DNA of 64,000 nucleotides from a virus: UHGV virus genome UHGV-1366603; one strand, written 5' to 3'. This document shows positions 6,917-64,000 of this stretch, one piece after another. Positions within the stretch are counted from its first letter, which is position 1; each line of letters opens with the position of its first letter. The position numbers and the translations under genes were made by a program. Under the pieces are notes generated by a model. It ran no database searches. It was not told the origin of the DNA and was given only the letters and a program-made list of their open reading frames with translations.

Positions 6917-6942
6917 CTTTAACTCCGGAGTTCATTAGGAAA

Positions 6943-8049: not shown

Positions 8050-8059
8050 GGGGTAAGGC

Positions 8060-8995: not shown

Positions 8996-9012
8996 ACCGT
9001 TAGGAGAGCCTC

Positions 9013-9573
9013 ATGTTTGAGCACGATAGTCCCGATTTTAATGTGGCTGTAGAGCGCATTAAAACCTATATGTCGATTTTATCAAAAAACCCAATCGACA
9101 CACACGATGACGAGCTTATTCACAAAACGCTGGAAGCGTGTGCGGTTGTATTACCGTACTTTCGTCTGTTAGCTGCTGACTCTGTGCAGCAGGTATTATA
9201 TGACGAATATCCGCAGGTCGGATTTACCTTTAATACGTTTTATAACGAAAGCGTAGCCTTCCTGCTTGATGGTAAACGACGCACTGTGACGTTAGGACAG
9301 TGGTCCGTATTGCTGTCGTCGTACATGAATGATGTTCGCAATACGAAGAACGTTGAACAGACGGGCTCATTGGGTGCACGTCTTCTTGCTGCTGCGTTTG
9401 GTCGCCGGGGTACTGTACGTAATATGGGTTCCGCTCACCAGTCTGTTGAGTGTAGCAAACGTCTTTTATCTTATGCAGACCATGAACTGCTGGCACGCTG
9501 GATGACACGCCCGAACGGGTTGTCCGACATGATCTCGTCGTTAGCAGTGTTTTTGAAAATCGCACGTCCCTAA
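9013..9573 (+). CDS. hypothetical protein (186 aa)
   Basis: ORF with TAGGAGAG RBS. Confidence 0.75.
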   Translation: MFEHDSPDFNVAVERIKTYMSILSKNPIDTHDDELIHKTLEACAVVLPYFRLLAADSVQQVLYDEYPQVGFTFNTFYNESVAFLLDGKRRTVTLGQWSVLLSSYMNDVRNTKNVEQTGSLGARLLAAAFGRRGTVRNMGSAHQSVECSKRLLSYADHELLARWMTRPNGLSDMISSLAVFLKIARP

Positions 9574-9604
9574 GGGGGCCCCTCATTCTAGGGGCGTGTA
9601 ATTG

Positions 9605-9616
9605 GGTTATATAACC
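9605..9616. promoter_or_regulatory. perfect 12-bp palindrome GGTTATATAACC upstream of highly expressed paralog gene (candidate promoter/operator)
   Basis: Read directly; sits 17 bp upstream of ATG 9633 between RBS and a GC hairpin. Confidence 0.3.
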
Positions 9617-9632
9617 AAAGGAAATAAACGAA

Positions 9633-10904: not shown

Positions 10905-10943
10905 TTAGACTTACGCTCGTACAGTTCTTGAAATAAATCAATA

Positions 10944-10962
10944 GGGGAACGACGTGTTCCCC
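10944..10962 (+). other. intergenic hairpin GGGGAAC-GACGTG-TTCCCC between paralogs (weak terminator/processing site)
   Basis: Stem-loop seen in sequence; no strong T-run. Confidence 0.3.
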
Positions 10963-10980
10963 TTAGAGGAAAAGCTTAAA

Positions 10981-12243
10981 ATGGCAAATTTCGCAAAAAC
11001 TCGCGCCGCTCGTGAATCGATGGAAGCTACTGCTACTGTAGTTCCAGACGGCATCGAACTGCCAGCAGAATCTGTTGAAGGTACTCTGGCCGATATCGAA
11101 CATGATACCAAACCGATCGAAGCCCTGGACGCTGACGCTGAACTGCTGGCCGAAGACGGCGACGAAACTGATGCTCAACTGGATGTCCTGGATGAAGCTC
11201 AGGCCGCTGCCGACGGTGAAGGTGCTGGTGAAGACGGCGAAGAGCCGATGGACGCTGAAGAAGATATGCCGGACGACGCAGCGACTGCGCTGGACGTTGC
11301 TCAGGAATCTATCCGTTCTCGTTGGAACTTCGAACACCGTTCTTCCGTTGCACACGAATCCTACGGTTCTCGTAACCGTCGCCAGGTTGCTCGTGAATCC
11401 CTGTGGGAAGACATTAAAGCATTCCTGAAACGTATCTGGGAATGGCTGAAAGAACAAGGCCGTAAGATCAAAGATCGTTGGCTGAAATTCTCCAACCAGG
11501 GTAAATCCATCCAGGCTCGTTCTAAGAAATACGACGATGCTATTCGTAAACTGGGCAAACAGAAGAAAGATGAAATCTCTGGTGGCTTCATCAAGTCTCT
11601 GTCTATCGACGGTAAATTCGTTGGCGACGATCTGTCGCGCCTGAAGAATATCCTGAACCACGTCTCCACCTACTACAGTGGTAACGTTCAGAGCTTCCTG
11701 AACAACGGTACGGATATGGTTGGTAACGTCGTTAAAGGCGATGGTGCTAAAGTTGAGAAACTGAAAGCAGACTTCGCTGCTCTGGCTAAAGAAGACGTTA
11801 GCAAGTTCAAACTTGGTAACATGGCTCTGAAGATGGAGTACGACGAAGAAGGCGGATTTAGCTCCAGCTATGTGGAAGCTGAAAACCGTGCTGAAACCAA
11901 CGTGAAAACTCCGTCTGTTAGCGAACTGGCTAAGACCAATGCCTTCTTCAACGAAGTGGGTAAACAGATCGAGAAGAACGTTCTGGAATATCGTAAGACT
12001 GAACAGGCTCGCGAGAAATTCAGCCAGCAGATTGAGAAGCTGCTGAAAGAAATCGACAGCGTGAAGATCGACGAAAAACCGCAACTGACCGAATCTGTAC
12101 GTACCGCACGTCGTTACATCAACAGCATTAACCAGGCAGTGTCTCTGGGCGAGAAAGTTATTTCCTCTACTCAGAAACATCTGGCTGGCGGTCTGAACGG
12201 CTATATCTCCGCAGGTATCGCTGCTTACGAAAAATCTAAATAA
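10981..12243 (+). CDS. abundant acidic-N-terminus protein, paralog B (420 aa)
   Basis: Start set at MANFAKTRAARESMEA (track ORF begins upstream at 10954); shared N- and C-terminal motifs with paralog A (…GLNGY…AGI.AY.KSK). Confidence 0.85.
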   Translation: MANFAKTRAARESMEATATVVPDGIELPAESVEGTLADIEHDTKPIEALDADAELLAEDGDETDAQLDVLDEAQAAADGEGAGEDGEEPMDAEEDMPDDAATALDVAQESIRSRWNFEHRSSVAHESYGSRNRRQVARESLWEDIKAFLKRIWEWLKEQGRKIKDRWLKFSNQGKSIQARSKKYDDAIRKLGKQKKDEISGGFIKSLSIDGKFVGDDLSRLKNILNHVSTYYSGNVQSFLNNGTDMVGNVVKGDGAKVEKLKADFAALAKEDVSKFKLGNMALKMEYDEEGGFSSSYVEAENRAETNVKTPSVSELAKTNAFFNEVGKQIEKNVLEYRKTEQAREKFSQQIEKLLKEIDSVKIDEKPQLTESVRTARRYINSINQAVSLGEKVISSTQKHLAGGLNGYISAGIAAYEKSK

Positions 12244-13074: not shown

Positions 13075-13093
13075 GACCTTTAGGAGAATAGAA

Positions 13094-13645
13094 ATGAACA
13101 AATTTAATATCTTAGACGCTAAAATCGTATCCGAGTCTTCTATTCAGCAAGAAATCTTTCGTGTTCAGTTCGGTGAGAAAGTTCTGAATATTCCGCGCCC
13201 AGTTATGATTGGCTTAGCGATATTCGTTAACAACAGCCATTGCAACGGTTCGGCGTTGTCAGTTCTTGAGTACGGTAACTATCAGTTTTATATTCCAGAA
13301 CATCTCGAGTATAACCGTTTTATTGAACTTAAACCGTTCTATAAGTTCATGCTTGATGCAGGGTATTCGATTCTAACCAAAACGTATATTCGAGACTACT
13401 CGAAGTTAGAATCTTTCTATCGTGCTCGTGGTCTCCGTGTCCCACAACCGTTCGACGGATACCAGACCCGTGTTGTGTTAACTGCACCGCTAACGAAAGA
13501 ATTGGCTTCCTACAAACTGGATATCGAACAAAAACTGCTGCGTGACGACTTACTGAAAATCTATAACCAGTTGTCCGTGGTGCCTTCTTCAACTGTTTCG
13601 AACATTGAACCAGAGTACGGAATAAGACAATACATGGAAGGTTAA
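13094..13645 (+). CDS. hypothetical protein (183 aa)
   Basis: Start moved to ATG after TAGGAGAAT RBS; track start 13046 lies inside the terminator hairpin. Confidence 0.75.
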   Translation: MNKFNILDAKIVSESSIQQEIFRVQFGEKVLNIPRPVMIGLAIFVNNSHCNGSALSVLEYGNYQFYIPEHLEYNRFIELKPFYKFMLDAGYSILTKTYIRDYSKLESFYRARGLRVPQPFDGYQTRVVLTAPLTKELASYKLDIEQKLLRDDLLKIYNQLSVVPSSTVSNIEPEYGIRQYMEG

Positions 13646-13646
13646 G

Positions 13647-13952
13647 ATGAATCCGAGAGCCGACCGAATAGACGTGATACGTTTTGAAGAGTGTGAAACC
13701 GAGTACCAGGTTAAACGTATCGAATTACGTTTAGTTATCCCTAAGCTAAACGAACCTGAGTGGAACGGTGAGCTGATGGTGCCGCTCGCCGAACCAATTA
13801 AAACGGGAGCAGGTGAGATTAATTATCTTCATTTAGAAGCGGCTGGACGAAAAGTAACCGTTTGGCATCTTGCTGACGGTTACAAAACCAGTCAGCTTAC
13901 ACGTAAAGCTTTTATTCGGAAATTAAGAGAGTCGATGGGAGTTGTGAAATGA
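13647..13952 (+). CDS. hypothetical protein (101 aa)
   Basis: ORF starting 1 nt after previous stop; stop overlaps DHFR start. Confidence 0.7.
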   Translation: MNPRADRIDVIRFEECETEYQVKRIELRLVIPKLNEPEWNGELMVPLAEPIKTGAGEINYLHLEAAGRKVTVWHLADGYKTSQLTRKAFIRKLRESMGVVK

Positions 13953-14485
13953 CAGTTACTGTATCTTTGATTGCAGCAGCGGGACTTAATAATGAAATAG
14001 GGAAAGACAATAAACTCCCTTGGCATATTCCCGATGACTTGAAGAACTTCAAAGCACTCACGTCAGGTAAGGTCATCGTGATGGGACGTAAGACGTGGGA
14101 GTCGTTGGGGTATAAACCCTTACCAAACCGTCACCACGTTATCTTAACACGAAAACATGGCGGTGTTCCTGACATCGACGGTGTGTTGAACCTTAAAGGT
14201 GATATGGGGTCGGTTATCGAGTTTCTCAAGAAAGAAGTTGTGGAGAAAGATTACCCGAAAGAAATCTTTATTATTGGTGGCGCAGAGATTTACCAACAGG
14301 CGATGCCTTATGCGGATAAGATTTACTTGTCTCGTGTTGAGGTTAAGGTAGAGGGTGCAGATGCGTTCTTCCCTGAAATCGATCATGACGTGTTTAAATT
14401 GACTTATAACTTAACACACTGCTCGAAACCAGAAAGTGAAATTCCGCGTTGGCATTATCAGATTTGGAAAAGAGATGGAAACTGA
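13949..14485 (+). CDS. folA: dihydrofolate reductase
   Basis: Motifs matching E. coli FolA from memory: SLIAA…G…N.LPWH.P.DL..FK..T.GK..VMGRKTWES.G..PLP.R, IGG..IYQQ…A…YLS.V…VEGD..FP. Confidence 0.9.
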   Translation: MTVTVSLIAAAGLNNEIGKDNKLPWHIPDDLKNFKALTSGKVIVMGRKTWESLGYKPLPNRHHVILTRKHGGVPDIDGVLNLKGDMGSVIEFLKKEVVEKDYPKEIFIIGGAEIYQQAMPYADKIYLSRVEVKVEGADAFFPEIDHDVFKLTYNLTHCSKPESEIPRWHYQIWKRDGN

Positions 14486-14771
14486 GTTTGTAACCTTAGA
14501 AAAACTCTTTTTAGGCAGCGTCGCGAAAAGGAAGATAGCCAGTTTCACTTGGAGCCGTACTCCCGTAAAATACGCGTTTCTACGTCGTTTACACTACGAG
14601 AAAAGCATCAAGCTGGTCTTGGTCGTGTTGTTCGAAAACAAACGCGGATTGTTGATTAATAATCATCGTTTTGCGGCGGAAATCTGGGCGACCACATCTG
14701 GCGGCGAGGAAGCGTCTGTTGGCTTTGCTAACGATGAGGTTATCTTTGAGGGTATACCTTATCTGTTATAG
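14475..14771 (+). CDS. hypothetical protein (98 aa)
   Basis: Start placed at ATG overlapping DHFR stop; track ORF 14436 starts inside DHFR. Confidence 0.5.
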   Translation: METEFVTLEKLFLGSVAKRKIASFTWSRTPVKYAFLRRLHYEKSIKLVLVVLFENKRGLLINNHRFAAEIWATTSGGEEASVGFANDEVIFEGIPYLL

Positions 14772-14784
14772 CACAGATAAACAT

Positions 14785-14820
14785 AAAAGGGGACTTCGGT
14801 TCCCTTTTATTTTTTTTTCA
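14785..14820 (+). terminator. intrinsic terminator (UUCG tetraloop)
   Basis: AAAAGGGGAC-TTCG-GTTCCCTTTT followed by T-run. Confidence 0.8.
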
Positions 14821-14860
14821 TTTCGCGCCTGTGATATGACTATAACGAAGGAACAAGCCA

Positions 14861-16369
14861 ATGCAACAGTATTTTGAAATTCCGTCGTTAGACGCGACCA
14901 TTCGCAAACCAATAATCGATGGCGTTATACAACGTGTACTTAATGAATCAGGTATTGATAAAGCAGCGGTTGTTTTCCTCGATGAATTCAATAGCGCACA
15001 TCAGCCCGATTCCACGTTAGGCGACGGTACAGAAGTTGAGTACAGCTCGCCTGAAAAGGTGTATGTTGAAGTAGAAGAAGAACGCGATGAGTGGGCCAGA
15101 ATCAATCGTCAGGTTGGTCAGCAAGCCGAACCGTACTTCTTTGAAAACTCCGTCGATCAGGTGCGTGCCTGGCCCGTTAGAACGATGTATAACGTAACGG
15201 TAACGTTACGACGTACCAGTGCCTCGCGCGATGAGTTATTGCGCTGGACAAACCGTTTAGACTCGTTAGTGGACATGGGTCGGTATTCGACAATGACCGA
15301 GTCAGAAGCGTTTTATTATATTCCGAAGCCAGCACTGAAACTGTTGAATGCCTGCTATGTTGCCGCAGGAACTCGTGTACCGACGTTTGACGATTTTAAA
15401 GCCTATCTCAAAGCGTACTTTACCCCCGACGTGTTCCGCGCTGCTAACGTTGCCGGTGGTCAGGAATCTATTGCGGTACGCTATGCACCTACTCGCTTAG
15501 AGACTGTATACGACGTTCAGACACCTGCCTGGGATAAAGACGAGAACCACTGGGAAGCCACATTCGTTGTGCGTTTCTCTTATCAGCGTCCTGAAGAGAT
15601 TGTGGTTTCGTATCCGTATATCATCAACCAGACGCCGCTCCCTGATGAATACTGGCCAGAGATAGACCCACCGTGGGTGTCTAACGAAGAATTGGTGTAT
15701 CGTCATCCGCAACAAAAGAATCTCGATTCAACGTGGTGGATTAACGAAACCCGTCAGTATATTCGTTTACCGTATCTACTGTCACCGACAGAACAGTTCC
15801 ACCGTACACATTCCCCGTTAAAAGATAAACTCTTACACGTTTTCGGAACAGACGTTGTATTCGATGAAGACAACATGAGCTCACCGAAAGTGTTATCTGT
15901 GGAGGATTTACCGTACGAGTGGAATCCTGATTTGTTGCCGTATATCGAACACTGTCGTGCAATAGACCCTACCGGACAGACAGGTGTCTTCCGTGTGGAG
16001 TTGTTCGAAGAAGGCCAAATCATCGAACCGCGTTTCTATCATTGGGAAGACAATACCTTCTTTTTGAAAGGTCGTGATTTAAAAGTTAACAAGAGTTACT
16101 ACTTAACTGAATCGGTGATGTTCGACTGGCGAGGGATGAACCTGTGGCCACTCCAGCTTTATCCTAAAGCCGCGAAAGTGTTGATAGAATGGTTATTCCC
16201 GAAATGGGATGTACCGGACTGGTGGTGGGATAAACCCGTATTACCGCCGAGTGTTATCGACGACATTAATAAACTGATTCCTAACGTAGAAGCCCGCGTC
16301 TTGCTGACGGTGCTGAACTCGACCGTGATTACCATGCGAGGGACAGAGAATGCTCAAAGCGAAGCGTGA
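14861..16369 (+). CDS. hypothetical protein (502 aa), probable structural
   Basis: Long ORF, first of five-gene block ending at terminator 20418. Confidence 0.8.
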   Translation: MQQYFEIPSLDATIRKPIIDGVIQRVLNESGIDKAAVVFLDEFNSAHQPDSTLGDGTEVEYSSPEKVYVEVEEERDEWARINRQVGQQAEPYFFENSVDQVRAWPVRTMYNVTVTLRRTSASRDELLRWTNRLDSLVDMGRYSTMTESEAFYYIPKPALKLLNACYVAAGTRVPTFDDFKAYLKAYFTPDVFRAANVAGGQESIAVRYAPTRLETVYDVQTPAWDKDENHWEATFVVRFSYQRPEEIVVSYPYIINQTPLPDEYWPEIDPPWVSNEELVYRHPQQKNLDSTWWINETRQYIRLPYLLSPTEQFHRTHSPLKDKLLHVFGTDVVFDEDNMSSPKVLSVEDLPYEWNPDLLPYIEHCRAIDPTGQTGVFRVELFEEGQIIEPRFYHWEDNTFFLKGRDLKVNKSYYLTESVMFDWRGMNLWPLQLYPKAAKVLIEWLFPKWDVPDWWWDKPVLPPSVIDDINKLIPNVEARVLLTVLNSTVITMRGTENAQSEA

Positions 16370-17720
16370 TAAGCCGTCAACATTTGAACCCGTAGACCGG
16401 CCTATCCCCGAGTTAAATAAACCCCAGGACGGCGTAAAAGAAACCACCAATATCGTTACGCAACCCACCCGTACCACCGTTACTGATTTAGACCGTATTC
16501 CAAAGCAATACCTAATGAAGTATCTGGAAGGGTCAGCGTGGACGGTGGACTTCTTTAACTTCCTGAAAGGAAGAAACGACGCCAAGAAGTTTTTCGATTC
16601 GAAAGTGCTTACACCTGACCAACAGGTGGAGAAAATCATCGGGTTGGAACTGCGTGTAACGACACCGCTCGATCGTAGCCAAGACACCACGAACAAAACG
16701 TTCAGCATGTCAGGCGCTGCAACAATTGCAAACTCGATTATCCCTAACGAGGGTTGCTTTTTCATCGCCCCTATTGGTGATGGTCGTTTTGCGTTGTTTA
16801 ACGTTACCAACGTTGTGCGTATGTCGAATAACAAAGTCGCGACGTACAACATCGAATACACGTTACTTTTCGAAGTTGACCCAGAAACCGCAGAAACGAT
16901 TCGTCGTTGCACCGTACGTGAATACTACTACGTTGCAGAGCGTGCCTGGACAGGCGGTGATACACTTCTCACACCGAAAGAGTACCGCGCGTTCCTGGAA
17001 GTCGTTGACGCGATTGAAGATATTGAACAGACGTATGTGAAACGTTTCTACGACGGTGAAACGGCCACGTTGTTGTTCCCACACGATCGGCACAGTGACG
17101 GTTTGCGTAGCCGTGCTTACTACGACGTGTTCTTAGCGCTGTTTGTGCGCGCGCTGGGGTTACGTACCGTAGGTAAGGATATTCAGATTTATCCACATCC
17201 GCCGATGAACGTGGAGGATATTGAAACGGTGTGGACAGCGCTGCTGCAACAGTCGCCAACGTTCTTAGCAGATTACAAACGTGACAGTTCGGTGTGGCAA
17301 ACGAAAACTTTCCGTACGATGCAACATCGTAACTCGGTAACGTGGTCGCTGATTTCCGACACCCGATTCTTTACGGAAGAGTTAAAGCCAGGTTATGGGA
17401 TGGCGCAACGTTTCCCTGGCCAGTGGCCAGAATGGAAACCGTTTGAACCGGTTGAAGTTGAAAACTATCGTGGGAACGAAGGAGAGTCTATACCGGCCTT
17501 CTTACCGTTATCCTTTAAACCGTATCTGTTGAGCGAGACGTTCTACGACGGTTCTTACAGTTCGTTGTTGGAATACGGCTTGTACTTGTACCTGCATAAA
17601 CGTCCGCTACCGTCGGTAATTGCGTTAAAACTGTTTGAGGAAGTTTATAAGCTCCCGAAAGACGCACAGTTCTATTACATTCCGATGGTGTATCTGCTTT
17701 TAAGATATTCGAGGGATTAA
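16350..17720 (+). CDS. hypothetical protein (456 aa)
   Basis: ORF with GAGGGA RBS, 20-nt overlap with upstream gene. Confidence 0.8.
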   Translation: MLKAKRDKPSTFEPVDRPIPELNKPQDGVKETTNIVTQPTRTTVTDLDRIPKQYLMKYLEGSAWTVDFFNFLKGRNDAKKFFDSKVLTPDQQVEKIIGLELRVTTPLDRSQDTTNKTFSMSGAATIANSIIPNEGCFFIAPIGDGRFALFNVTNVVRMSNNKVATYNIEYTLLFEVDPETAETIRRCTVREYYYVAERAWTGGDTLLTPKEYRAFLEVVDAIEDIEQTYVKRFYDGETATLLFPHDRHSDGLRSRAYYDVFLALFVRALGLRTVGKDIQIYPHPPMNVEDIETVWTALLQQSPTFLADYKRDSSVWQTKTFRTMQHRNSVTWSLISDTRFFTEELKPGYGMAQRFPGQWPEWKPFEPVEVENYRGNEGESIPAFLPLSFKPYLLSETFYDGSYSSLLEYGLYLYLHKRPLPSVIALKLFEEVYKLPKDAQFYYIPMVYLLLRYSRD

Positions 17721-17721
17721 T

Positions 17722-18261
17722 GTGTCAGTGAAACGTAGTGCAGCGTTTATGCTGTTCCATAAGTGGGTAGCATGGCGTGTCCCTGAATGGACAACCATCA
17801 CCCAGTATATGTCGCAAGAACACGGATTGTTCTTGCCGGATGACGAAAAGAAAGCACGAGCGATTTTGTTGAACAAGAAAACGGTGTATATGCGGCCATT
17901 TGAAGTGGCGGTGTATGCTGAGACCGGTGCTGCGTTAGATGTTCATGATCCGAACGACGGTATTATCGTTTACGGGTATATCATGGAACACCTGGCAGAT
18001 TGGTTACATTACATGCAAGAACCTCACCTGACGACGCGTAAAGTGCCGATAGAAGGACTACGTCAGTTCAACGCCTTAGCATGTAAACTCTTTCCTGTTG
18101 CTAACCGTTACGGTTACTTTAAGAAACCGGAAGTGACGATGGCGACGTCGGTACAAGCGTTATTTGGAGAGGTGCGTTTAGAAACGCAGCAACACCGTTT
18201 TAACGATACGATAATGCGACGTATAGAAGCGATTTATCGTAAAAGGGGAGGTATACTGTAA
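17722..18261 (+). CDS. hypothetical protein (179 aa)
   Basis: ORF with apparent GTG start 1 nt after previous stop. Confidence 0.65.
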   Translation: MSVKRSAAFMLFHKWVAWRVPEWTTITQYMSQEHGLFLPDDEKKARAILLNKKTVYMRPFEVAVYAETGAALDVHDPNDGIIVYGYIMEHLADWLHYMQEPHLTTRKVPIEGLRQFNALACKLFPVANRYGYFKKPEVTMATSVQALFGEVRLETQQHRFNDTIMRRIEAIYRKRGGIL

Positions 18262-19580
18262 TGTCGTTTGGTCGGTTACAGAACATAGCAAACGTGCACA
18301 TTGCACAAGCGGCGGGATTACCGGCCATCGAATACGTACCTATCATTACGGTACGTGGTACAGTTATCAGCGTATTTAAAACGTTGTCGATAATCCATGC
18401 CAGTAACTTCGCACAGGACTTAACGACCATCACCCATCTTACCGTGATGATACCGTTGAGCCAACAGCGTGTGTTAACGTCCTCCGCAGACGGGGATTTG
18501 TCCGTGAAGATCTTAATGCGGACGATGAACAAGAAAACCGTTGCGAAACTCGACTATCGGGGTATCGTCGTGAACAACCACGATCCCGATATGGAATCGC
18601 CCACGATGTTCTTAGGTGAGTCTGACCAGAAAGCGTTAGCGGTCGTCACCCTGGAACTGATGGACGAGTCAATGTGGTTCTTACGTTGCCGTCAGGTCGG
18701 TGGGATTTATCACGAGACAGATGGCCTTAGCGTTGTTCGTGCGCTGCTGGCAGATACGTTACCTACCGGTGATGCGCCAGAAGGTCAGTTGGTGGGCGTG
18801 GAATACGAGGAAGAGGAGCAACAACCGTATCGGGATATTTTGATTCCTGACTCGGAAAGTTTCCTGTCTGTGTTCGATTACCTTCAGAATCGTTACGGGG
18901 TTTATAGCCAAGGATTGGGGGTGTTCCTTTACAAACACCGTTGGTATATTTTCCAACCTTGGGACTCTAAGAAGTTTTCATCAGCGAAGAATAAGCTGGT
19001 GATTATAAACCTACCGAAAGAGAAAGCAGCGTATCTGAATAAGACCTGCCACATTGACGGTGATGTGATTTACCTGATTTGTGGGGGTGATGTCCACACC
19101 TTCGAAGATAAAGACTCCTTAGCGCTAAACCAAGGTACCGGTTATCGTGTGGGGTCTATCCGTGCGTTGGATGGTCGTGCGTCCTCGTTCTCGTCAGGCG
19201 ACGTTTCTGCTACAACGTCTGATTCGTTCGTCTCAGCGGCTGACCCGACGCAATATCCAGGCGGCGTAGTTAACGCACCAATTGACCCGAACCAACACTT
19301 CTCGGACACAGATAAACCGCAACGGTCTAAGTTAGCGGCGGCGAAAGGGACGTTAACCGCAACAACCTGGAACGCTTCAACGTATGGCTTACTCCGTCCG
19401 GGGATGGCAGTAAAATACATTTATGCGAATAACTATGGTGTATACACGCGTTACGGAACATTAGTTGCAGAAGTTTTCCAAGGTGCAATTGATGGCGGTT
19501 CAGCGGCTTCACCACGGTTTAATACCATTAGTCAGTTGACGTTGTGGCTGACTAATGAAAATTTTACATCCACAACGTAA
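18261..19580 (+). CDS. hypothetical protein (439 aa)
   Basis: TAATG junction, AGGGGAGG RBS. Confidence 0.8.
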   Translation: MSFGRLQNIANVHIAQAAGLPAIEYVPIITVRGTVISVFKTLSIIHASNFAQDLTTITHLTVMIPLSQQRVLTSSADGDLSVKILMRTMNKKTVAKLDYRGIVVNNHDPDMESPTMFLGESDQKALAVVTLELMDESMWFLRCRQVGGIYHETDGLSVVRALLADTLPTGDAPEGQLVGVEYEEEEQQPYRDILIPDSESFLSVFDYLQNRYGVYSQGLGVFLYKHRWYIFQPWDSKKFSSAKNKLVIINLPKEKAAYLNKTCHIDGDVIYLICGGDVHTFEDKDSLALNQGTGYRVGSIRALDGRASSFSSGDVSATTSDSFVSAADPTQYPGGVVNAPIDPNQHFSDTDKPQRSKLAAAKGTLTATTWNASTYGLLRPGMAVKYIYANNYGVYTRYGTLVAEVFQGAIDGGSAASPRFNTISQLTLWLTNENFTSTT

Positions 19581-19612
19581 GTTATGTCGACAGCAACCTA
19601 AAGGATTTGTTA

Positions 19613-20413
19613 ATGAGCAATTTACTTACTTTCCGCATGTCTGGTCAAACGTTAATGCAGATTGACGAGTACGAAAAAGAACATTTCGCTAAACCGTCCA
19701 AACTGTTAGAACGTTGCTTAAAGGTTATTCCAGGCGGCGAGCATTGTCAGCTAGATTTCGTCATGGCGTCTTCTGCTGACAAAACGGTCTCTGTTATCTA
19801 CACGGTTGACGGAGTACAGGGCCATCGCTTATTACCGATTGAAGAAAAAGGTTCTTTGGGTAATTTGTTGTTCTTGCACGCAATCACGACAGCGGTAGTG
19901 ACGGGTGCACTGGAAGCACAGTACGGTTTCGCGTATTGCTATTTCTACGCACAGAAACTGGCGAATGCGGTAGTTCCAGGGGAGCCGGAAACGTATCCGA
20001 AGTATATCGAACGTTTGCTTCCGACACACTTTGCTGAGTCTGACGACTATGAGTTCAATGCTTTCCGTTTCACGATGATTGGCGAAGCACGCGATCCTGA
20101 AAACACCATCGCGTTACGTGCTGTTGTTCGTTACGCGGTAATTTCGTCTGACAGCGGAATGGCAAGCAACTTCAACGAAGTGTTCCCGGTTATGCAACTA
20201 GGTCCGTATATCACGTTTAACGCGTACGTACCGTTTACTTGTCAGTTAATCGGCCCGCAGGATAACGATTCTATCCTCCCGATTACTGAAGAGAAAGGTC
20301 TGCATATTCGTGACGCCGTAGAAGTCATCAACGATAAACGTTTTACGATCTCATCGAAAAGCGGCATTGCTGATGAAGAACTTGCGGTCGTGAACAAAAT
20401 GCAAGTGATGTAA
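19613..20413 (+). CDS. hypothetical protein (266 aa)
   Basis: Start set at ATG after AAAGGA RBS (track uses TTG at 19607). Confidence 0.75.
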   Translation: MSNLLTFRMSGQTLMQIDEYEKEHFAKPSKLLERCLKVIPGGEHCQLDFVMASSADKTVSVIYTVDGVQGHRLLPIEEKGSLGNLLFLHAITTAVVTGALEAQYGFAYCYFYAQKLANAVVPGEPETYPKYIERLLPTHFAESDDYEFNAFRFTMIGEARDPENTIALRAVVRYAVISSDSGMASNFNEVFPVMQLGPYITFNAYVPFTCQLIGPQDNDSILPITEEKGLHIRDAVEVINDKRFTISSKSGIADEELAVVNKMQVM

Positions 20414-56410: not shown

Positions 56411-56604
56411 AAATTTGGTTGCCGATTCTAGTTTTTATCGTTATTGCAGGGGCACTCGCAAGTGCTGAGTTAGATAGCCGTACTTTAGAAACGAAACGTG
56501 AATTGTACCAGGACTGTATAAAGGATTACACACCGGGTACAGAGCTTCATGCACAGGCTGTAAAAAGCTGTGCGTTGATGGCTGAATCGCAGACTCGCTC
56601 CTAA
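56407..56604 (+). CDS. small signal-peptide/membrane-anchored protein (65 aa), paralog of previous gene
   Basis: GGAGGG RBS; MKIWLPILVFIVIAGALASA; LYQDC…AQAVKSC motif. Confidence 0.65.
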   Translation: MKIWLPILVFIVIAGALASAELDSRTLETKRELYQDCIKDYTPGTELHAQAVKSCALMAESQTRS

Positions 56605-56978
56605 TGCGTATCTGGACGCTACAACTCGCTAAGTGGCGGTTAGCTAAGCAGAAAGGATTTCACGCAGTGGATATCACTGTGAAGTCAGGTCGAAAGGAAC
56701 TCGCCCCCGACTGGGATTTCCTAATGGCGTATAAATCTTCTGCCAAGGACGCTGCCGCTGAACGTGAGTACACGATAAAGTATTTGTACAAACTCGAACG
56801 ACTGTTAGATACTGATGCCGAAGTTTTAGTGTCATTACTCAGACACGATGACTTGGTTTTGATGTGTTACTGTCCCGTAGGTAAGTTTTGTCATCGTCAC
56901 CTACTGGCGAACAAACTTCAAGAAGTAGGAATGATGTTCGGTATCGACGTTGCGTTGTGTGGAGAATTAACCGAATGA
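56604..56978 (+). CDS. DUF488-like protein (124 aa)
   Basis: LVLMCYCPVGKFCHRHLLA resembles the conserved C.C…CHR motif of DUF488/YeaO-type proteins (from memory). Confidence 0.5.
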   Translation: MRIWTLQLAKWRLAKQKGFHAVDITVKSGRKELAPDWDFLMAYKSSAKDAAAEREYTIKYLYKLERLLDTDAEVLVSLLRHDDLVLMCYCPVGKFCHRHLLANKLQEVGMMFGIDVALCGELTE

Positions 56979-57039: not shown

Positions 57040-57088
57040 TCTCCTACCGCCCGATTCTATGGGCGGTAGGTGTTTTATTTTTTTTTGA
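57040..57088 (+). terminator. intrinsic terminator
   Basis: CCTACCGCCC-GATTCTAT-GGGCGGTAGG followed by T-run. Confidence 0.9.
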
Positions 57089-57102: not shown

Positions 57103-57666
57103 GTGGCCACATCTTACGTACCTGATTTGAGTCTGACCTCAGCAGAGCTAGTGGTCGCTTTAATCAATCATGATAACGGGTTACAGCTTACGCTAAACGA
57201 AATACGTATTAGTGGAACTGTAACAAACCCATCCCCAACAACTTCGCGTCGTAACACTATCACTGAAATCAGTAAAATCAGAAAACCGGATGGTGCGTCT
57301 GTTGTGGTTTATTACGACAGACTCGACGCAGATGAAGTATTAACGTATGAACCCATTCTGATTTCGTTAGACGGTACTGAAGACAACGTTCGTGACATTC
57401 TTAGTGTTGTAAATGAATTCTGCGGAACGAACTTACAACCCGAGGATTTACGTGCTTCAGATATCACTTTAGGTAACGATCCCATTTCCGTTAACGTTGC
57501 TGACGATTCTCCTGCCTGGATGAATGCGTTTATGGTGACGTTATTTGATAAAACCGAACGTGCGTTAGCGAACGAAGAAGATGAAATCTTCTGCATCGGT
57601 GACGATAGCGTTCTTACATTCGAGGTTACAGATGGCGACAGCACTGAAGAAGACGAGACTCCATGA
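57103..57666 (+). CDS. hypothetical acidic protein (187 aa), first gene of tail fibre module
   Basis: Apparent GTG start after GGAGGG RBS. Confidence 0.65.
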   Translation: MATSYVPDLSLTSAELVVALINHDNGLQLTLNEIRISGTVTNPSPTTSRRNTITEISKIRKPDGASVVVYYDRLDADEVLTYEPILISLDGTEDNVRDILSVVNEFCGTNLQPEDLRASDITLGNDPISVNVADDSPAWMNAFMVTLFDKTERALANEEDEIFCIGDDSVLTFEVTDGDSTEEDETP

Positions 57667-58093
57667 GCTCGAAAGCTACGCAGGCACACCGCAGGGTGGG
57701 GTACTGCTGTATAGCAAAGACAATAAAGAATATAAAATTGATGTTGATAAGTTAGCCCCGGTTGCGACAGTCACAACGGTTAACGGTGCGAATAATGCAG
57801 CCACGCTGGATTTCAATACCAGCACTGACATTATTCTGGTGTTAAACGATCCCACCACTACAGTGAAGTTCGCAGCCCTTACCAACGTTGCGGAAAATAC
57901 CCGTTTCGAAGTAATGCTAACGTTTAAGCAAGGAACGGGGGCGAATAAAGTAACCTGGCCTGAAAACGTTAAGTGGCCTCACGGTGCACAACCGGTTTTA
58001 TCCTACGCGGCAAATGCGGAGGACACTCTGTCGCTTTATACCCTTGATGGGGGTGCCACCTGGAAAGGTTCTCTTCTTGCAGCGGGTTACTAA
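57632..58093 (+). CDS. tail fibre N-terminal anchor-domain protein (153 aa)
   Basis: Start set at MATALKKTRLHELESYAGTPQGGVLLYSKDNKEYKIDV, which parallels the N-terminus of the 61177 fibre; GAGG RBS. Confidence 0.6.
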   Translation: MATALKKTRLHELESYAGTPQGGVLLYSKDNKEYKIDVDKLAPVATVTTVNGANNAATLDFNTSTDIILVLNDPTTTVKFAALTNVAENTRFEVMLTFKQGTGANKVTWPENVKWPHGAQPVLSYAANAEDTLSLYTLDGGATWKGSLLAAGY

Positions 58094-61000
58094 ATGAGAA
58101 AACATTTTCAGCGTCACGCGATTAGCTACGCGTTATCGTTAGCTTACGGACACCAATCCTTCGTTACCCGGAATACGGGAACGACTCACGACGCGCACAA
58201 CGAACACTATATTCAAAACGAAGAAGGTGTTCTGTCGAATAACCGTCATTTCATTGCTGACACTATGGCGGAATACCAACCGAACGGGGACGCGACGACC
58301 GAGGGTCAGTCGTTACACGTTATTGGTTACTGCCACATGTATATCGCAACGAAAGACGAAAGATGGTTAGATGCGGCGAAACACGCCTGGGATGCGTACA
58401 ACACGTACTTCTACGTCGGACAACCTATTCCGACCACACCCCAGCGTCGGATTTGTAACTGGTTGGTAAACGGGAAAGAACCGGTATTAGCACATTACCC
58501 AATACACCCTACAGAACCTACCCAAGGTGGGTATAAAAGCGTCCCTGTAAGGTTTACAAACGGACAGTGTAAAATACCGCATGGTGCACCGTTCTGGGGA
58601 GAGTATTTGGATACCTTTACGTTTGCGCATCGTGGTCACCCTGCCTGGGAAGCCATTAACGCAGACGTACAGATTATTAAGGAAGACAAAGAAGGGTCAA
58701 TTAATTGGGAAGACGTTTTAACTCACGTTATTACCAATCCTGATAAACCCTACGAGGCCAAAGCCTGGGTTGATTGGCCTACGTTATTAAACAACGCTAC
58801 AGGGTACACCCCGCTTTGGGGTGGCAGTGCAACAAAAGCCCCTAAACACGACGTTGACTGGATAATTGCCTGGACAGGTAACAAAATCCAGGATAGTGAG
58901 ATTATTGAGACAGGATTAGCAGACGCTGATAAAGGTACCGTACAGTTAAAAGACACGCAGTTAAACGGTGTCTATTTGATTAACTACGCGGTAAAACTGC
59001 CTGTCGAACACGGGGGTTACGAGTTTAAACGTAACGAACCGTGGCACAACCGTCCAGTTCACACGCCGTTCTTAGGATCGAAAAACCAATACGGTAACGC
59101 CGCTGATGCTGAACTGTGGTTTATTGACGCCTGTTATTTGCTGTGGCGAATCACGGGTGAAGAGAAATACAAACAAGCATTAGACTGTGCTTTCTACACA
59201 GCACACGAGTACACGTATATTGATGCGGTAGATAAATTCTTCCGTCGTTCTACCGCTGCGGAAACACCGTTTACGGATGGTATTTCGTACGACTTCAATT
59301 ACCCGGACACCGTAAGTGCTACCTACGGCCGTGATGAGAATGGGGATATTACCATCCATGTGCCTGAAGCGGCACAACACTTTATGGAGCAGAAAGCGGT
59401 TCGATTCAGGATTAACAAAGACTCCAAACTACGTGTCACGTACGGCGGGGTTTGTAAGAACGGTGATCCTGTCTACTGTAAAGCAATGGTAAACATTAAC
59501 CCTGTGAAAGCCGACACCGAGGAAGTAAACTGGTACGGCTTAACCTTACCTCAGTCTACGGTAAATACCGTTAAGCAGTACGATATTGACTTAGGCCAAC
59601 TTGCCCGTATCACCACCCCAGAAGGAGAAGACTACCTGATAGCCGACGCCCGTGCGTGTTCGGACTATGGTGGTTGTACGTGGGAAGAACGTTTTGAGAA
59701 CAGCATTTACGACGGTCGCGCGGGTACCGTTATAGAAGCTGAATTTCCTGATGACGGTGCCGGGTTTATTATCGGGTTCTGGTTAACCGCTGAAGAGAAG
59801 GTAAAACCGGTTTCTATTGTCTACCGTGCGGACGCAGATTTTAACCTGCGTTTAGTCGACAGTGATAACTGGCGTTGGTGGTGGATGTTACCCAACACAA
59901 ACAACGAATGGCGTCAGGTAACGTTGAATCCGGATGATGCCACACTTTCCGGTTATCAGCCAGACCACACAGACGACGACCCTAAACCGGCAGCACCGAA
60001 TTTCGATAAGGTGGATCAGGTCACGATTCTCCCTGACTCTACGGTTGACCATGCACATTTTGCCTACTATTGTGTTAACGATGTTCCACCGCTCTTTAAT
60101 AAAGACGACGGTTATATTCTCACCTTCCGTATTGGGTTACGCGGCGGTGGAGAGTATGATGCGAAGGTCGGCGACTGTACGATCAAAGATTACCGATTGG
60201 ATTCGTTAGCGTATTGTCCGGGTACGATACCGTTCTCGAACAACTATTCAGAAGGTTCAGAACAGTTAGGTGCCTGGCACGGGATGCCTTATCCGGGTTA
60301 TCAGTATCCGTTTATGTACACTATCCACAAAGACGACCGGTATAAGCTGTGGTTAGATAACCAGATTCAATTCTTGTACGATTCGCAGTTGGCTTACCAA
60401 CGGCAACTCGGTGAATTAGGGCCCGGTTGTGCAGCGTATATCTGGAACCGTTGGGACAACTACAGCTACGGAGAAGCAGATACCTGGACAACGTTCCATT
60501 GGGGCGACGACCATCCGTGGGCAGGGTATCAACCTCGTGCGTTTCATGCTGCGTGTCGGTGCTGGTACGAACTGAAACTAAGAGGTAAAGAGATTCCTGA
60601 GGCGTTAACAAGCTATATTGAAAACTGGGTGAATTGGCTAGGTGGGTTTGTGGATCGGTTTAACGGACACACCCCTAACGAGTTCCCTACAGCACCTGAT
60701 AAACCCGTTTGGGTGGAAGATGACTTCACCGCACATATGTGTGCGTTGTGGTTAGCAGGCTGTTGTTGGGCATTACTCGCTGGTGCAACTAATCCGAACT
60801 ACGATAAGGTAGTTAATGCGGCAATTAAGGAGTTAGGTGAAGGGTTTACGATTACCTCAATTCCGAATAAGCCGATTAACGGGGCGTGGTCTCCAGCCGC
60901 TCGAGAGTCTTCCGATAACGGAATGGCTTTTGGGTTCTACAGTGGGGAAGCGTTCCGTGCGTTAGGTCTCTACGTTACTTACAAAACCTACGGAGCCAAC

Positions 61001-61099
61001 GCTAATATTTATCGTGACTTAGCGATTGCTGACCACAGTCAAGCGGTCTTAGACGTTACGTTAACGATAGAAGACGATGCATTAAAACCAGAGCAATAA
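58094..61099 (+). CDS. large tail spike/fibre-associated protein (1001 aa), possible polysaccharide-degrading domain
   Basis: ORF starting directly after anchor-domain gene; large aromatic-rich protein next to tail fibre. Confidence 0.75.
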   Translation: MRKHFQRHAISYALSLAYGHQSFVTRNTGTTHDAHNEHYIQNEEGVLSNNRHFIADTMAEYQPNGDATTEGQSLHVIGYCHMYIATKDERWLDAAKHAWDAYNTYFYVGQPIPTTPQRRICNWLVNGKEPVLAHYPIHPTEPTQGGYKSVPVRFTNGQCKIPHGAPFWGEYLDTFTFAHRGHPAWEAINADVQIIKEDKEGSINWEDVLTHVITNPDKPYEAKAWVDWPTLLNNATGYTPLWGGSATKAPKHDVDWIIAWTGNKIQDSEIIETGLADADKGTVQLKDTQLNGVYLINYAVKLPVEHGGYEFKRNEPWHNRPVHTPFLGSKNQYGNAADAELWFIDACYLLWRITGEEKYKQALDCAFYTAHEYTYIDAVDKFFRRSTAAETPFTDGISYDFNYPDTVSATYGRDENGDITIHVPEAAQHFMEQKAVRFRINKDSKLRVTYGGVCKNGDPVYCKAMVNINPVKADTEEVNWYGLTLPQSTVNTVKQYDIDLGQLARITTPEGEDYLIADARACSDYGGCTWEERFENSIYDGRAGTVIEAEFPDDGAGFIIGFWLTAEEKVKPVSIVYRADADFNLRLVDSDNWRWWWMLPNTNNEWRQVTLNPDDATLSGYQPDHTDDDPKPAAPNFDKVDQVTILPDSTVDHAHFAYYCVNDVPPLFNKDDGYILTFRIGLRGGGEYDAKVGDCTIKDYRLDSLAYCPGTIPFSNNYSEGSEQLGAWHGMPYPGYQYPFMYTIHKDDRYKLWLDNQIQFLYDSQLAYQRQLGELGPGCAAYIWNRWDNYSYGEADTWTTFHWGDDHPWAGYQPRAFHAACRCWYELKLRGKEIPEALTSYIENWVNWLGGFVDRFNGHTPNEFPTAPDKPVWVEDDFTAHMCALWLAGCCWALLAGATNPNYDKVVNAAIKELGEGFTITSIPNKPINGAWSPAARESSDNGMAFGFYSGEAFRALGLYVTYKTYGANANIYRDLAIADHSQAVLDVTLTIEDDALKPEQ

Positions 61100-61121
61100 T
61101 AACCCGCTTATAAAAAATATT

Positions 61122-61150
61122 GGGGGGGGGTAAGCTACTCCCCCGATCTT
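61122..61150 (+). other. G9 homopolymer tract plus weak hairpin (possible weak terminator)
   Basis: TGGGGGGGGG TAAGCTACT CCCCC then GATCTTT. Confidence 0.3.
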
Positions 61151-61176
61151 TAGCTCCCGATAGAGAACTTAATATC

Positions 61177-64000
61177 ATGGCGAAAGCGGTAAAGAAAATA
61201 CGATTGCATAATCTTAGGCCGTATACCGGTGATATCGGTGAAGGCGTTTTACTTTTCTCCAAGGATGAGAAAGATTATAAGTTACCAGTCCGTGAGGTTA
61301 TTGCAGATATTGACACCGTACGTAATGCGGTGGCTGATGCACAAACAGCAGCAGCGCAATCACAAGAAGCTGCAACTCAGGCTACACAAGCAAAGAATTT
61401 AGCAGAAACAGCAAAACAACAAACTGACACCGTTGCGGCTACGGTTGCTCAACAAGCACAAACCGTAACAGAAAAAGCAACGGAAGTCGGTACAAAACAC
61501 ACTGAAGTGTTAGCCGCGAAAACGGCGGTAGATACCCAGGTTGTGTCCGTTAATGAGAAAGCGCAAGCGGTAGCGGCAAGTGAGGCCAACGTCACGCAAG
61601 CAGAGACTACTGTTACGAAGAAAGCAGAAGCCGTTGCGACACAAGCCGGTCAAGTTGAACAGTCTCTTACGGCAGTTAACGAAGCTGTCGCGTCGGTAGA
61701 GTCGTCAAAAGCCTCTGTAGAAGCTACAGCAACGCAAGTTACCTCGGACAAAGAAACCGCAGAGAATGCGGCAACCCGTTCTGAGGCAGCCGCTAAGCGA
61801 GCAGAAGAAATTGTTGCACAAGGTACTGTTGATGCAACAACGTCCAGTAAAGGTATCGTTAAACTTAATAATACCTTAACCAGTGACTCGGTTACTGAAG
61901 CTGCTACTCCGTCAACGGTTAAGCAGTTAAATGATGATTTGCAGTTAAAAGCAAACCGTCACAACCCAACCTTTACCGGTACGGTAAAAGCACCAACCCC
62001 TGCTGCGGATTCTAACGACACGAGTGTCTCAACGACTGCATGGGTACGACAAGCGATTGCTGAATTAGTGGACTCTTCTCCCGAGACGTTAGATACGTTA
62101 TCAGAAATTGCAGCCGCGTTAGGAAACGATCCTAACTTTGCGACAACGATAACGAATCAGCTCGCGGGTAAACAGCCGTTAAGTCCGTTACTGACAGCGA
62201 TTGCCGCAGTCACCACCGCTGCAAACAAACTCCCTTACTTTACCGGTAGTAATCAGGTAGGGTTAGCGGATTTCACCTCGACCGCACGCGATTTATTAGC
62301 AAAAGGGTCGACGGCCGATATCATTAGCTTCCTGGGTTTGAAAACTACCGTCGATAAAGCTGCGGGGGCGATGCAGCGCAATTCTAATGGTGCAGATATT
62401 CCTGACAAAGCCACCTTCGCGAAGAATATTGGATTGTCAGCAGAGACGTATCTGAAGTTTAATGGGGAGATGGCAGTAGATGCAGATATCAACACCTTCG
62501 GCCCAGTCGAAGCGTTTATGGGTGTTTGGTCTAAAGCCACGTCTACGAATGCAACAATTGCAAAGAACTTCCCGGAAGATGATGCAGTTGGTTACTTAGA
62601 AGTATTCAAAGCAGGTAACTACAGCGGAAGTCAACGTTTTACCATACGTAACGGTAACGTCTATACTCGTCGTTTAACAGGAACCTGGAACGGTACTAAC
62701 GGCCCTTGGTCACCCTGGAGAATGACAACCACCGCGAACCGTCCGCTCTCTACCACTATTGACCTTAACACCTTAGGTGGTGTTGAACACATGGGTCAGT
62801 GGCGTAACTCCAGTTCTTCTCTTGCGACGTTCGATCGTCATTATCCCGAAGAAGGTGGTAATGCTCAAGGTGTGTTAGAAGTAATGGAAGGTGGTCTCTA
62901 CGGACGTATGCAACGTTACACCACTCGTCGTGGTACGATGTATATCCGTGGGTTGACTGCGACTTGGGATGCGTCTAATCCGCAGTGGGAAGACTGGATT
63001 CAAGTTGGGTATCAGGTAGACGGTGCCTACTATAAGGGTAGCTTTAATAACTTAACTAAACCCGGTCGTTTTAGTGTTACCGGTGAGGCTACTGACGGAC
63101 CGTTAACAGGGCCTTCTGGTGAAACTTTGTTAGGTGTCTGTGAAGTCACCCTGCGCTTAGACGGTGTAGGTGTCGAACAAAATTACACCACTTACGGTAC
63201 AGGTGCTATTTATAAAGGTCGTAAGTTCCATCGTATCCGTACGGGGAATGTCTGGAGCGAGTGGCGTGAAGTTTATACGTCTAGTTCATTAGCGATGCTT
63301 TTAGGAATCGGTGGAGTTGCAGCTAAGGTCGATCCGTTGGACTGGCAAACCTACGACTTCGTTCCTGGACAGATGTTAACGACACCGTTGAACACCATGA
63401 AAAACATTCCTGCGGGAATGGATTGGGGTGTGATCAACGGTAACTTAGTTAACATCCTTGTAGGTCCGTCTGACGACACTGGTACCGGCCGCAGTATGCT
63501 GGTTTGGCGTAGCACGGTGTCTACTGCCAACTATCGCTTCTTTGCGGTACGTATCGCCGGTGAGAAGGGTAGTCGTACGATTACACCACGCCAGATGCCT
63601 GTATTGAACGCAGCGCACACCTGGGCAGAGAAACAGACCTTTGCAAAAGGGTTAGCAGGTGAGTTAACAGGCAATGCTTCAACCGCCACTAAATTAAAGA
63701 CGGCACGTAGAATTGGTGGGGTCGCCTTCGACGGTAGCGGCGATGTTAACCTCCCAGGTGTTAACCAACAAGGTAATCAAAACACCACGGGTAACGCCGC
63801 GACAGCCACTAAACTTCAAACTGCCAGAAATATTAACGGTGTGAGATTCGATGGTTCTGCTGACATCAATATCAACACCCTGGTGGGTCGTGGTCGGGTT
63901 ACCGCTCTAACCGGTTCAAACAAAGGTACACCTGGTATTCAAATGTACGAAGTTTACAATAACGGTTATCCAACCGCTTATGGTAACTTACTGCATTTGG
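61177..64000 (+). CDS. tail fibre protein, 3'-truncated at window edge
   Basis: Not in ORF track (no stop in window); Ala/Thr/Gln-rich coiled-coil, SSKGIVKLNN…ATPSTVKQLND and NPTFTGTVKAPTPAADSNDTSVSTTAWVRQAI tail-fibre motifs, two tail-fibre repeats near 63673-63870. Confidence 0.85.
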   Translation, partial: MAKAVKKIRLHNLRPYTGDIGEGVLLFSKDEKDYKLPVREVIADIDTVRNAVADAQTAAAQSQEAATQATQAKNLAETAKQQTDTVAATVAQQAQTVTEKATEVGTKHTEVLAAKTAVDTQVVSVNEKAQAVAASEANVTQAETTVTKKAEAVATQAGQVEQSLTAVNEAVASVESSKASVEATATQVTSDKETAENAATRSEAAAKRAEEIVAQGTVDATTSSKGIVKLNNTLTSDSVTEAATPSTVKQLNDDLQLKANRHNPTFTGTVKAPTPAADSNDTSVSTTAWVRQAIAELVDSSPETLDTLSEIAAALGNDPNFATTITNQLAGKQPLSPLLTAIAAVTTAANKLPYFTGSNQVGLADFTSTARDLLAKGSTADIISFLGLKTTVDKAAGAMQRNSNGADIPDKATFAKNIGLSAETYLKFNGEMAVDADINTFGPVEAFMGVWSKATSTNATIAKNFPEDDAVGYLEVFKAGNYSGSQRFTIRNGNVYTRRLTGTWNGTNGPWSPWRMTTTANRPLSTTIDLNTLGGVEHMGQWRNSSSSLATFDRHYPEEGGNAQGVLEVMEGGLYGRMQRYTTRRGTMYIRGLTATWDASNPQWEDWIQVGYQVDGAYYKGSFNNLTKPGRFSVTGEATDGPLTGPSGETLLGVCEVTLRLDGVGVEQNYTTYGTGAIYKGRKFHRIRTGNVWSEWREVYTSSSLAMLLGIGGVAAKVDPLDWQTYDFVPGQMLTTPLNTMKNIPAGMDWGVINGNLVNILVGPSDDTGTGRSMLVWRSTVSTANYRFFAVRIAGEKGSRTITPRQMPVLNAAHTWAEKQTFAKGLAGELTGNASTATKLKTARRIGGVAFDGSGDVNLPGVNQQGNQNTTGNAATATKLQTARNINGVRFDGSADININTLVGRGRVTALTGSNKGTPGIQMYEVYNNGYPTAYGNLLHL
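63673..63870 (+). repeat. two tandem phage tail-fibre repeats (protein level)
   Basis: NASTATKLKTARRIGGVAFDGSGDVNL and NAATATKLQTARNINGVRFDGSADINI. Confidence 0.7.

Follow-up and report, generated by a model that had tools for sequence, protein, structure and literature searches.

A phage receptor-binding locus probably built from interchangeable parts: a shared N-terminal anchor, a small adaptor with a glycosidase-type partner, and a long mosaic fibre

We analyzed a 64,000-nucleotide (nt) stretch of the virus genome UHGV-1366603, referred to here as the window, and describe its receptor-binding region, which comprises four co-oriented genes, all on the + strand. They encode, in order, a 187-amino-acid (aa) DUF7941 protein, a 153-aa protein, a 1001-aa tail protein and a long tail fibre. 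The open reading frames (ORFs) at 57632, 58094 and 61177 had been listed in a first-pass annotation; they are present as noted there, and the fibre runs past the window after 941 codons. We consider it probable that the region is a receptor-binding locus of interchangeable parts, consisting of a shared anchor, an adaptor plus an enzyme-type protein, and a long mosaic fibre. The features on which this proposal is built are listed below.

57043..57070, + strand: intrinsic-terminator-like hairpin (11-base-pair (bp) stem with 8 GC pairs, then a T-rich tail; TGTTTTATTT)
57103..57666, + strand: 187-aa DUF7941 protein (Pfam PF25613, E=6e-20; phmmer to SPN3US gp122, E=8e-42)
57632..58093, + strand: 153-aa adaptor gene including its stop codon (SPN3US gp123 orthologue; phrog_9017 over the full length, E=2e-38)
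57632..57763, + strand: N-terminal anchor, aa 1-44 of the 153-aa protein, common to the long fibre
57779..58090, + strand: conserved C-terminal β-sandwich domain, aa 50-153, proposed dock for the 1001-aa protein
58094..61099, + strand: 1001-aa tail protein (SPN3US gp124 orthologue, phi92 gp141-type homologue)
61177..64000, + strand: long mosaic tail fibre, first 941 codons, interrupted by the window end
61177..61308, + strand: N-terminal anchor of the fibre, aa 1-44

The hairpin at 57043..57070 separates an upstream DUF488-like gene (56604-56978) from the receptor-binding cassette. Downstream of it the DUF7941 gene and the 153-aa gene overlap by 35 nt. The 153-aa ORF starts at the ATG at 57632, which has GAGGT 5 nt upstream, and ends with the TAA at 58091-58093; an in-frame ATG further upstream, at 57581, is not used by homologues. 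The ATG of the 1001-aa ORF follows this TAA immediately and in the same frame. Because the three genes abut or overlap 3' of the terminator, the DUF7941, adaptor and enzyme-type genes are probably co-expressed. A megablast search of 50,697 phage records returned a single match, the Erwinia jumbo phage pEa_SNUABM_29 (Seoulvirus), with 72.7% identity across one third of the locus, and protein-level searches point to SPN3US and its relatives as the kin of the window. Judged by these similarities, the source of the window is an SPN3US-like jumbo myovirus. A further contig, L003, agrees with the window at 99% identity.

The 153-aa protein and the fibre were proposed in the first-pass annotation to begin with near-parallel sequences, and this similarity is significant on alignment: 25/50 N-terminal residues are identical and 33/50 positive (BLASTP, E=3e-11). 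When phmmer was run with each of the two 44-aa N-termini over every six-frame ORF of the window, the only matches were the reciprocal ones (E=5.7e-9 and 8.3e-10); no third anchor-bearing ORF was found in the window, the next matches having E>1. The shared motif, MAxxVKKxRLHxL...GVLLxSKDxKEYK, spans about 40 residues and is lineage-specific. A low-confidence model of it combines a β-hairpin with a disordered stretch. Of the first 38 codons, 22 specify the same residue in both genes, yet 16 of these 22 differ as codons, and nucleotide identity is 52%. A recent DNA duplication as the origin of the common N-terminus is ruled out by this nucleotide identity. The codon comparison identifies the anchor as an old, diverged protein motif kept by selection.

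What does the anchor carry in other phages? A profile was made from the two window anchors, and among 1.84 billion representative proteins it retrieved 16, nearly all of which match at residues 1-40. Their remaining parts are diverse. The anchor is found on adaptors of about 155 aa, on a 1494-aa fibre, on a 706-aa SASA-family esterase and on proteins of 710, 273, 188 and 133 aa; no fewer than six different C-terminal architectures occur behind it. In the GenBank Seoulvirus phages it occurs once per genome. In the window, L003 and L016 (a related 226-kilobase (kb) contig), every slot with an anchor-bearing receptor-binding gene has a DUF7941 gene at its head. The window phage has both the adaptor/enzyme pair and the fibre within its first DUF7941-headed slot. 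L003 has a second DUF7941 gene (19075-19590), followed by a 206-aa protein that represents a third anchor-bearing product. At the L016 locus (3020-12121) the first DUF7941 gene (3020-3586) is followed directly by the long fibre, the adaptor/enzyme pair being absent from this locus, and the second (9485-9997) heads a slot with the anchor-bearing 706-aa SASA-family esterase. Because of these contexts in L003 and L016 and the varied cargo of the anchor, we read the region as slots headed by DUF7941 genes into which different anchor-bearing devices are swapped. The earlier suggestion of an exchangeable virion-attachment module is therefore supported at the level of sequence comparison: the anchor behaves as an N-terminal plug, and in the L016 slot the fibre replaces the adaptor/enzyme pair. 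The DUF7941 protein is a candidate socket or assembly factor. Its SPN3US orthologue gp122 was not detected in wild-type particles; the authors of that work thought that it might belong, distantly, to a paralogue family of head proteins (PMC5694885).

The 153-aa protein, 47% identical to SPN3US gp123 by tblastn, falls into two parts. Its first 45 or so residues are confined to SPN3US-like phages, and its last 100 or so are widespread: the C-terminal domain has the motif QGTGANKVTWP..VKWP.G..P.LS....D...L...DGG.TW.G, which recurs in small 'tail fibre' proteins from numerous phages that are not related to one another. An AlphaFold2 (AF2) model of the protein reached a predicted local distance difference test (pLDDT) value of 82, and comparison with PDB sequences gave chance-level matches only. 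The 153-aa sequence alone recovered 10 homologues, and a profile of distant members was used thereafter. With a hidden Markov model (HMM) of the C-terminal domain (E=7.6e-43 in the window), the small-domain gene was found directly upstream of the large gene in 11/11 loci in which the large protein stands alone. Large proteins that carry the baseplate domain Tail_P2_I as a fusion are not accompanied by the small gene. Loci with the pair were found in the following phages and prophages.

SPN3US-like jumbo phages: the window, L003, SPN3US, pEa_SNUABM_29, L010 and L011
phi92-like phage: JohannJBalmer
Rosemountvirus-like phage: L004
T7-like podoviruses: ISAO8 and G1, with the pair at the tail-fibre gene position and large proteins 41% identical to that of the window
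P2-like Pseudomonas prophage: L013, with the pair between the baseplate protein I gene and a fibre gene
Marine prophage: L015

This obligate small partner of the large protein is apparently a regularity that has not been described before. The adjacency might be taken to reflect co-regulation only, with the 153-aa protein acting as an independent short fibre that ends in a receptor-binding knob and the 1001-aa protein attaching elsewhere through its own N-terminal helix. PHROG families do label such small proteins as tail fibres, and the large protein can attach directly when it is fused to Tail_P2_I. We nevertheless regard this explanation as improbable, given that the adjacency holds in all 11 loci over unrelated phage types and that the small gene is missing exactly where the large protein has a baseplate domain of its own. 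In ISAO8 and G1, moreover, the gp17 position is held by the small protein only and the large protein begins directly at its conserved N-terminal helix; in this arrangement the virion link of the large protein must therefore run through the small protein.

The first-pass annotation had also raised the possibility that the 153-aa and 1001-aa ORFs are a split spike with a suppressible or readthrough stop at 58091-58093. According to this idea the two ORFs are halves of one spike, and readthrough of the TAA or a recent split would relate them to a functional fusion of about 1155 aa. The two window ORFs do share a frame without any spacer, and the junctions of SPN3US and pEa_SNUABM_29 (TAA, 3 nt, ATG) are in frame as well. 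These three in-frame junctions share descent, however, and so are not independent. TAA is the least leaky stop codon, and it is the stop at the window junction. Other lineages have different junctions, namely ATGA in L004, an 8-nt overlap in ISAO8 and a 1-nt overlap in G1 and JohannJBalmer, and the domain of the small protein was found within the large protein in 0 of the 120 homologues listed. SPN3US gp123, with its 16.5 kDa, was in addition recovered from the gel slice of lowest mass. Given how the junctions vary, where gp123 ran in the SPN3US gel and the lack of a fused homologue among the 120 listed, we reject readthrough or fusion, an idea to which we give next to no credence; the split spike and the suppressible stop were accordingly dropped.

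Both orthologues have been observed in virions. SPN3US gp123 (16.5 kDa, gel slice 1) and gp124 (113.7 kDa, slice 9) were found by mass spectrometry in particles purified on caesium chloride (CsCl) (PMC5694885), at similar relative abundance and without being marked as head proteins (PMC5694885 supplement). The presence of gp123 in CsCl-purified virions (PMC5694885) speaks against the notion that the small protein is a folding chaperone of the large one rather than a virion adaptor. Tight translational coupling and strict gene pairing would suit a chaperone, but the small protein bears the anchor, and in ISAO8 and G1 it occupies the tail-fibre position with a long N-terminal extension before the shared domain. 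We hold a chaperone role to be very unlikely. The strict pairing, the absence of fusions among the 120 homologues listed and the varying junctions, along with TAA as the stop codon and the gel results for SPN3US, instead argue for a non-covalent arrangement of adaptor plus cargo. They support, from gene comparison, a two-component spike in which the 153-aa adaptor would hold the 1001-aa protein non-covalently. Of the two arrangements that the first reading of the locus had entertained, a split or a two-component spike, it is thus the latter that stands, with the pair adjoining in all 11 loci and its SPN3US orthologues being separate virion polypeptides.

The 1001-aa protein was described in the first-pass annotation as rich in aromatic residues, and its composition bears this out: tryptophan makes up 3.6% as compared to 1.4% in other long window ORFs, and tryptophan, tyrosine and phenylalanine together 13.7% as compared to 9.4%. 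It matches phrog_2871 with 1461 bits, is 72% identical to SPN3US-type proteins and 41% identical to phi92-like and ISAO8 proteins (E=0). Homologues number in the hundreds, are 45-77% identical and come from Salmonella, Erwinia, Acinetobacter, Pseudomonas, Shewanella and marine phages and prophages. No Pfam domain was found in the protein, and no relative in the PDB was detected by the single sequence or by a 35-sequence profile. An AF2 model built from a 35-sequence alignment (pLDDT 89, predicted template modelling score 0.85) predicts a core formed by a discontinuous (α/α)6 barrel of the glycosidase type (aa ~27-123, 319-396 and 699-966), whose helices lie, by secondary structure, around residues 69-106, 337-375 and 751-966. 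The barrel is interrupted by two β-rich inserts (aa 124-318 and 397-698), which in Foldseek comparisons loosely resemble carbohydrate-binding β-sandwiches. The fold comparison list contains 3ren (GH8-like; 31.6, with 326/332 residues aligned), glycoside hydrolase (GH) families GH105 (27.3) and GH76 (26.5), and YteR, GH88 and cellobiose 2-epimerases (22-26). When the barrel and the two insert regions were searched against Pfam, they gave only sub-threshold hits to GH76 and GH47. Conservation within the family is highest in the barrel segments. It is lowest in the N-terminal helix (aa 2-26; residues 1-25 in the conservation comparison), in a loop rich in indels (196-250) and in the second β-insert. 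Invariant acidic residues stand at predicted helix starts, among them E70 in PNGDxTTEGQS and D338 in NAADAE.

The suggestion that this protein may carry a depolymerase-like domain holds in part. The modelled (α/α)6 fold is enzyme-like, but it does not belong to a β-helix depolymerase, since the trimeric parallel β-helix catalytic domain of the P22/K1F/CBA120 tailspike type was not found in it, nor does it fall into a Pfam GH family. The model supports a glycosidase-type fold outside the curated GH families, with a predicted enzyme role. Based on fold and conservation, its most likely role during adsorption is to bind a glycan of the cell surface and, probably, to cleave it. Published descriptions of its homologues are in keeping with this picture. 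In the table of a review that cites Schwarzer 2012, phi92 gp141 appears as a glycosidase and predicted receptor-binding protein (PMC5380687), and S144 ORF17 was annotated as a tail protein only, being neither spike- nor fibre-like, with hydrolase activity predicted by HHpred (PMC7432712). The BASEL paper considers it unclear which genes make which lateral fibres (PMC8594841).

The 1001-aa protein could instead be a non-catalytic glycan-binding or structural tail protein whose barrel is an inactive relic. The missing GH family assignment and the high conservation across hosts fit such a role, as does the view of the S144 authors that ORF17 is neither spike nor fibre but a tail protein only (PMC7432712). 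Against it, the barrel with its invariant Asp/Glu is the most conserved part of the protein, the aromatic enrichment and the β-sandwich inserts suit a carbohydrate-active enzyme, and the HHpred analysis by the same authors predicted hydrolase activity (PMC7432712). We therefore think that a relic barrel is unlikely, although it deserves to be taken seriously, and retain the prediction of an enzyme. Several homologues are considerably longer: P0013, P0016, P0020 and P0025 (1687-1694 aa), P0091 and P0113 have long C-terminal extensions with Big_2 Ig-like repeats or lectin-like regions. These extensions suggest that additional binding modules can be mounted on the barrel protein.

The fourth gene of the locus encodes the long fibre, which was predicted to continue past the window with canonical tail-fibre repeats. 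The features of its coding region and of the segment 5' of it are the following.

61124..61148, + strand: G-rich hairpin within an element of about 75 nt 5' of the fibre gene, kept in L003 and L016
61837..61953, + strand: Phage_fiber_2 repeat, aa 221-259, after an Ala/Thr/Gln-rich stretch (Pfam E=1.2e-10)
62338..63753, + strand: fibre segment, aa 388-859, with about 64% identity to P2-like tail fibre protein H
63754..64000, + strand: beginning of a T-even gp37-type repeat region (aa 860 onward)

The repeats were recovered by Pfam (Phage_fiber_2, E=1.2e-10) and by many PHROG tail-fibre families, and over the 472 residues of aa 388-859 the fibre shares 64% identity with P2-like protein H. In L003 the fibre is complete at 1493 aa and contains Phage_fiber_2, Gp34_trimer and Peptidase_S74. 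There, the region 13085-20210 holds the S74 end of the fibre, followed by two differing gp38-type adhesins, one of 260 aa with glycine-rich motifs and one of 170 aa. The S74 domain, a self-cleaving intramolecular chaperone, and the gp38-type proteins were identified in L003 only, past the window end. By domain content the fibre is a mosaic of P2 gpH and T-even parts in a single polypeptide. The element 5' of the fibre gene (61100-61176) contains a TATAATA-like motif and a G-rich hairpin, which reads G9...C5 in the window and forms a perfect 9-bp stem in L003. This element of about 75 nt is kept in L003 and L016 despite a different upstream gene, and by this comparison it moves together with the fibre cassette. 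It could act as a terminator or as a regulatory element that belongs to the cassette; the predicted fold of 61100-61176 is no more stable than that of shuffled sequence (z = -0.28).

How does the locus compare with known systems? The gp122-gp123-gp124 genes of SPN3US and the corresponding genes of pEa_SNUABM_29 and of the metagenomic jumbo-phage contigs L010 and L011 have the same order of DUF7941, ~155-165-aa and ~1000-aa products, and SPN3US and pEa_SNUABM_29 share the anchor of the window. Relative to these two phages, the small protein of the window is 47% and the large one about 72% identical. Unlike in the window and L003, the large gene of SPN3US and pEa_SNUABM_29 is not followed by a long fibre, by gp38-type adhesins or by a second DUF7941 slot. 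The pairs gp140/gp141 of phi92 and bas62_0024/0025 of JohannJBalmer (Justusliebigvirus) combine the same small C-terminal domain with a protein of about 958 aa that has 41% full-length identity to the 1001-aa protein. The JohannJBalmer-type pair sits inside the cluster of baseplate and lateral-fibre genes, and the phi92-type small protein differs at its N-terminus, where it lacks the anchor motif. Anchor-and-branch systems are known from T7-like phages (a gp17-type adaptor with a second spike), from CBA120 (TSP1-4), from G7C (gp63.1/gp66) and from Klebsiella jumbo phages. The window differs from them in that the distal protein is a predicted (α/α)6 barrel rather than a β-helix trimer and the adaptor is only 153 aa long; no sequence similarity was found between the two arrangements. 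Compared to the (α/α)6 glycoside hydrolases GH8, GH105/GH88 and GH76, the 1001-aa protein has about 10% identity, no significant Pfam or profile match and two large β-insertions in the barrel. The parts of the fibre are known from P2 H and from T2/S16-type gp37 plus gp38, but here a single polypeptide of 1493 aa contains them all, with a jumbo-phage anchor at its front. In L011 the region 15354-17958, which lies some kb downstream of the gene for the large tail protein, encodes Acb3-like and Tad3-like proteins (anti-defence family).

Taken together, we propose that the anchor of about 40 residues would attach its various carriers to sites of a single kind on the tail or baseplate. The C-terminal β-sandwich of the adaptor would hold the glycosidase-type protein non-covalently, as suggested by their co-occurrence and by the virion data on the orthologues. 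The barrel would bind, and probably cleave, a surface glycan, a role to which its fold and conservation point. The long fibre with its gp38-type adhesins would supply a second, independent specificity.

Several observations do not sit easily with this model. Three anchor-bearing proteins are set against two DUF7941 genes, and this stoichiometry does not fit simply. Contact between the adaptor and the 1001-aa protein is something we infer, the models being of single chains. As for the enzyme, the barrel alone matched only GH76 in Pfam (E=1e-3, 18.8 bits, with a cut-off of 25.9). Membership in GH8, an idea derived from the TTEGQS motif, was rejected and is not claimed, since hhalign of the family profile to E. 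coli BcsZ, a GH8 enzyme, gave a probability of 0.2. The large family is 41-50% identical across very different hosts and thereby unusually conserved for a host-specific depolymerase. The pair is also not always found among baseplate genes. In L004 (7070-13805), a Salmonella phage contig, it lies between the tail terminator gene and two genes with Big_2 domains, upstream of the sheath gene; this location outside the baseplate cluster and by the head-tail connector genes means that a neck or collar position is possible in the Rosemountvirus-like lineage. Lastly, a cryo-electron microscopy study of phi92 could not assign gp140 to any fibre density (PMC13450770), and the phi92 maps hold no assigned position for either gp140 or gp141. 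Even with these points considered, we regard a receptor-binding locus of interchangeable parts as the probable explanation.

A more far-reaching version can be put forward only tentatively. It states that the adaptor and the large protein form a portable two-component unit that moved among jumbo, phi92-, Rosemount-, T7- and P2-like phages and marine prophages, that the large protein represents a new GH family acting on a broadly conserved envelope glycan, and that DUF7941 proteins are anchor sockets or assembly factors. If the unit is portable and DUF7941 proteins provide the sockets, one site on the jumbo-phage baseplate could take alternative devices. If the large protein founds a new GH family, its target would be a common envelope glycan and not a strain-specific O-antigen or capsule. 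The architecture of the (α/α)6 barrel is unlike that of the usual β-helix depolymerases, and the conservation across hosts hints at a common glycan target.

The concepts of modular phage adsorption are left unchanged by these data, as the swapping of receptor-binding modules was already known. The family of phi92 gp141, SPN3US gp124 and S144 ORF17 is widespread; the small partner would explain its route to the virion and suggests that the two proteins should be co-expressed when they are studied. Receptor-binding proteins set the host range of phages and are swapped by engineers. A plug of about 40 residues that naturally carries varied cargo may thus offer a design rule for the retargeting of SPN3US-like jumbo phages.

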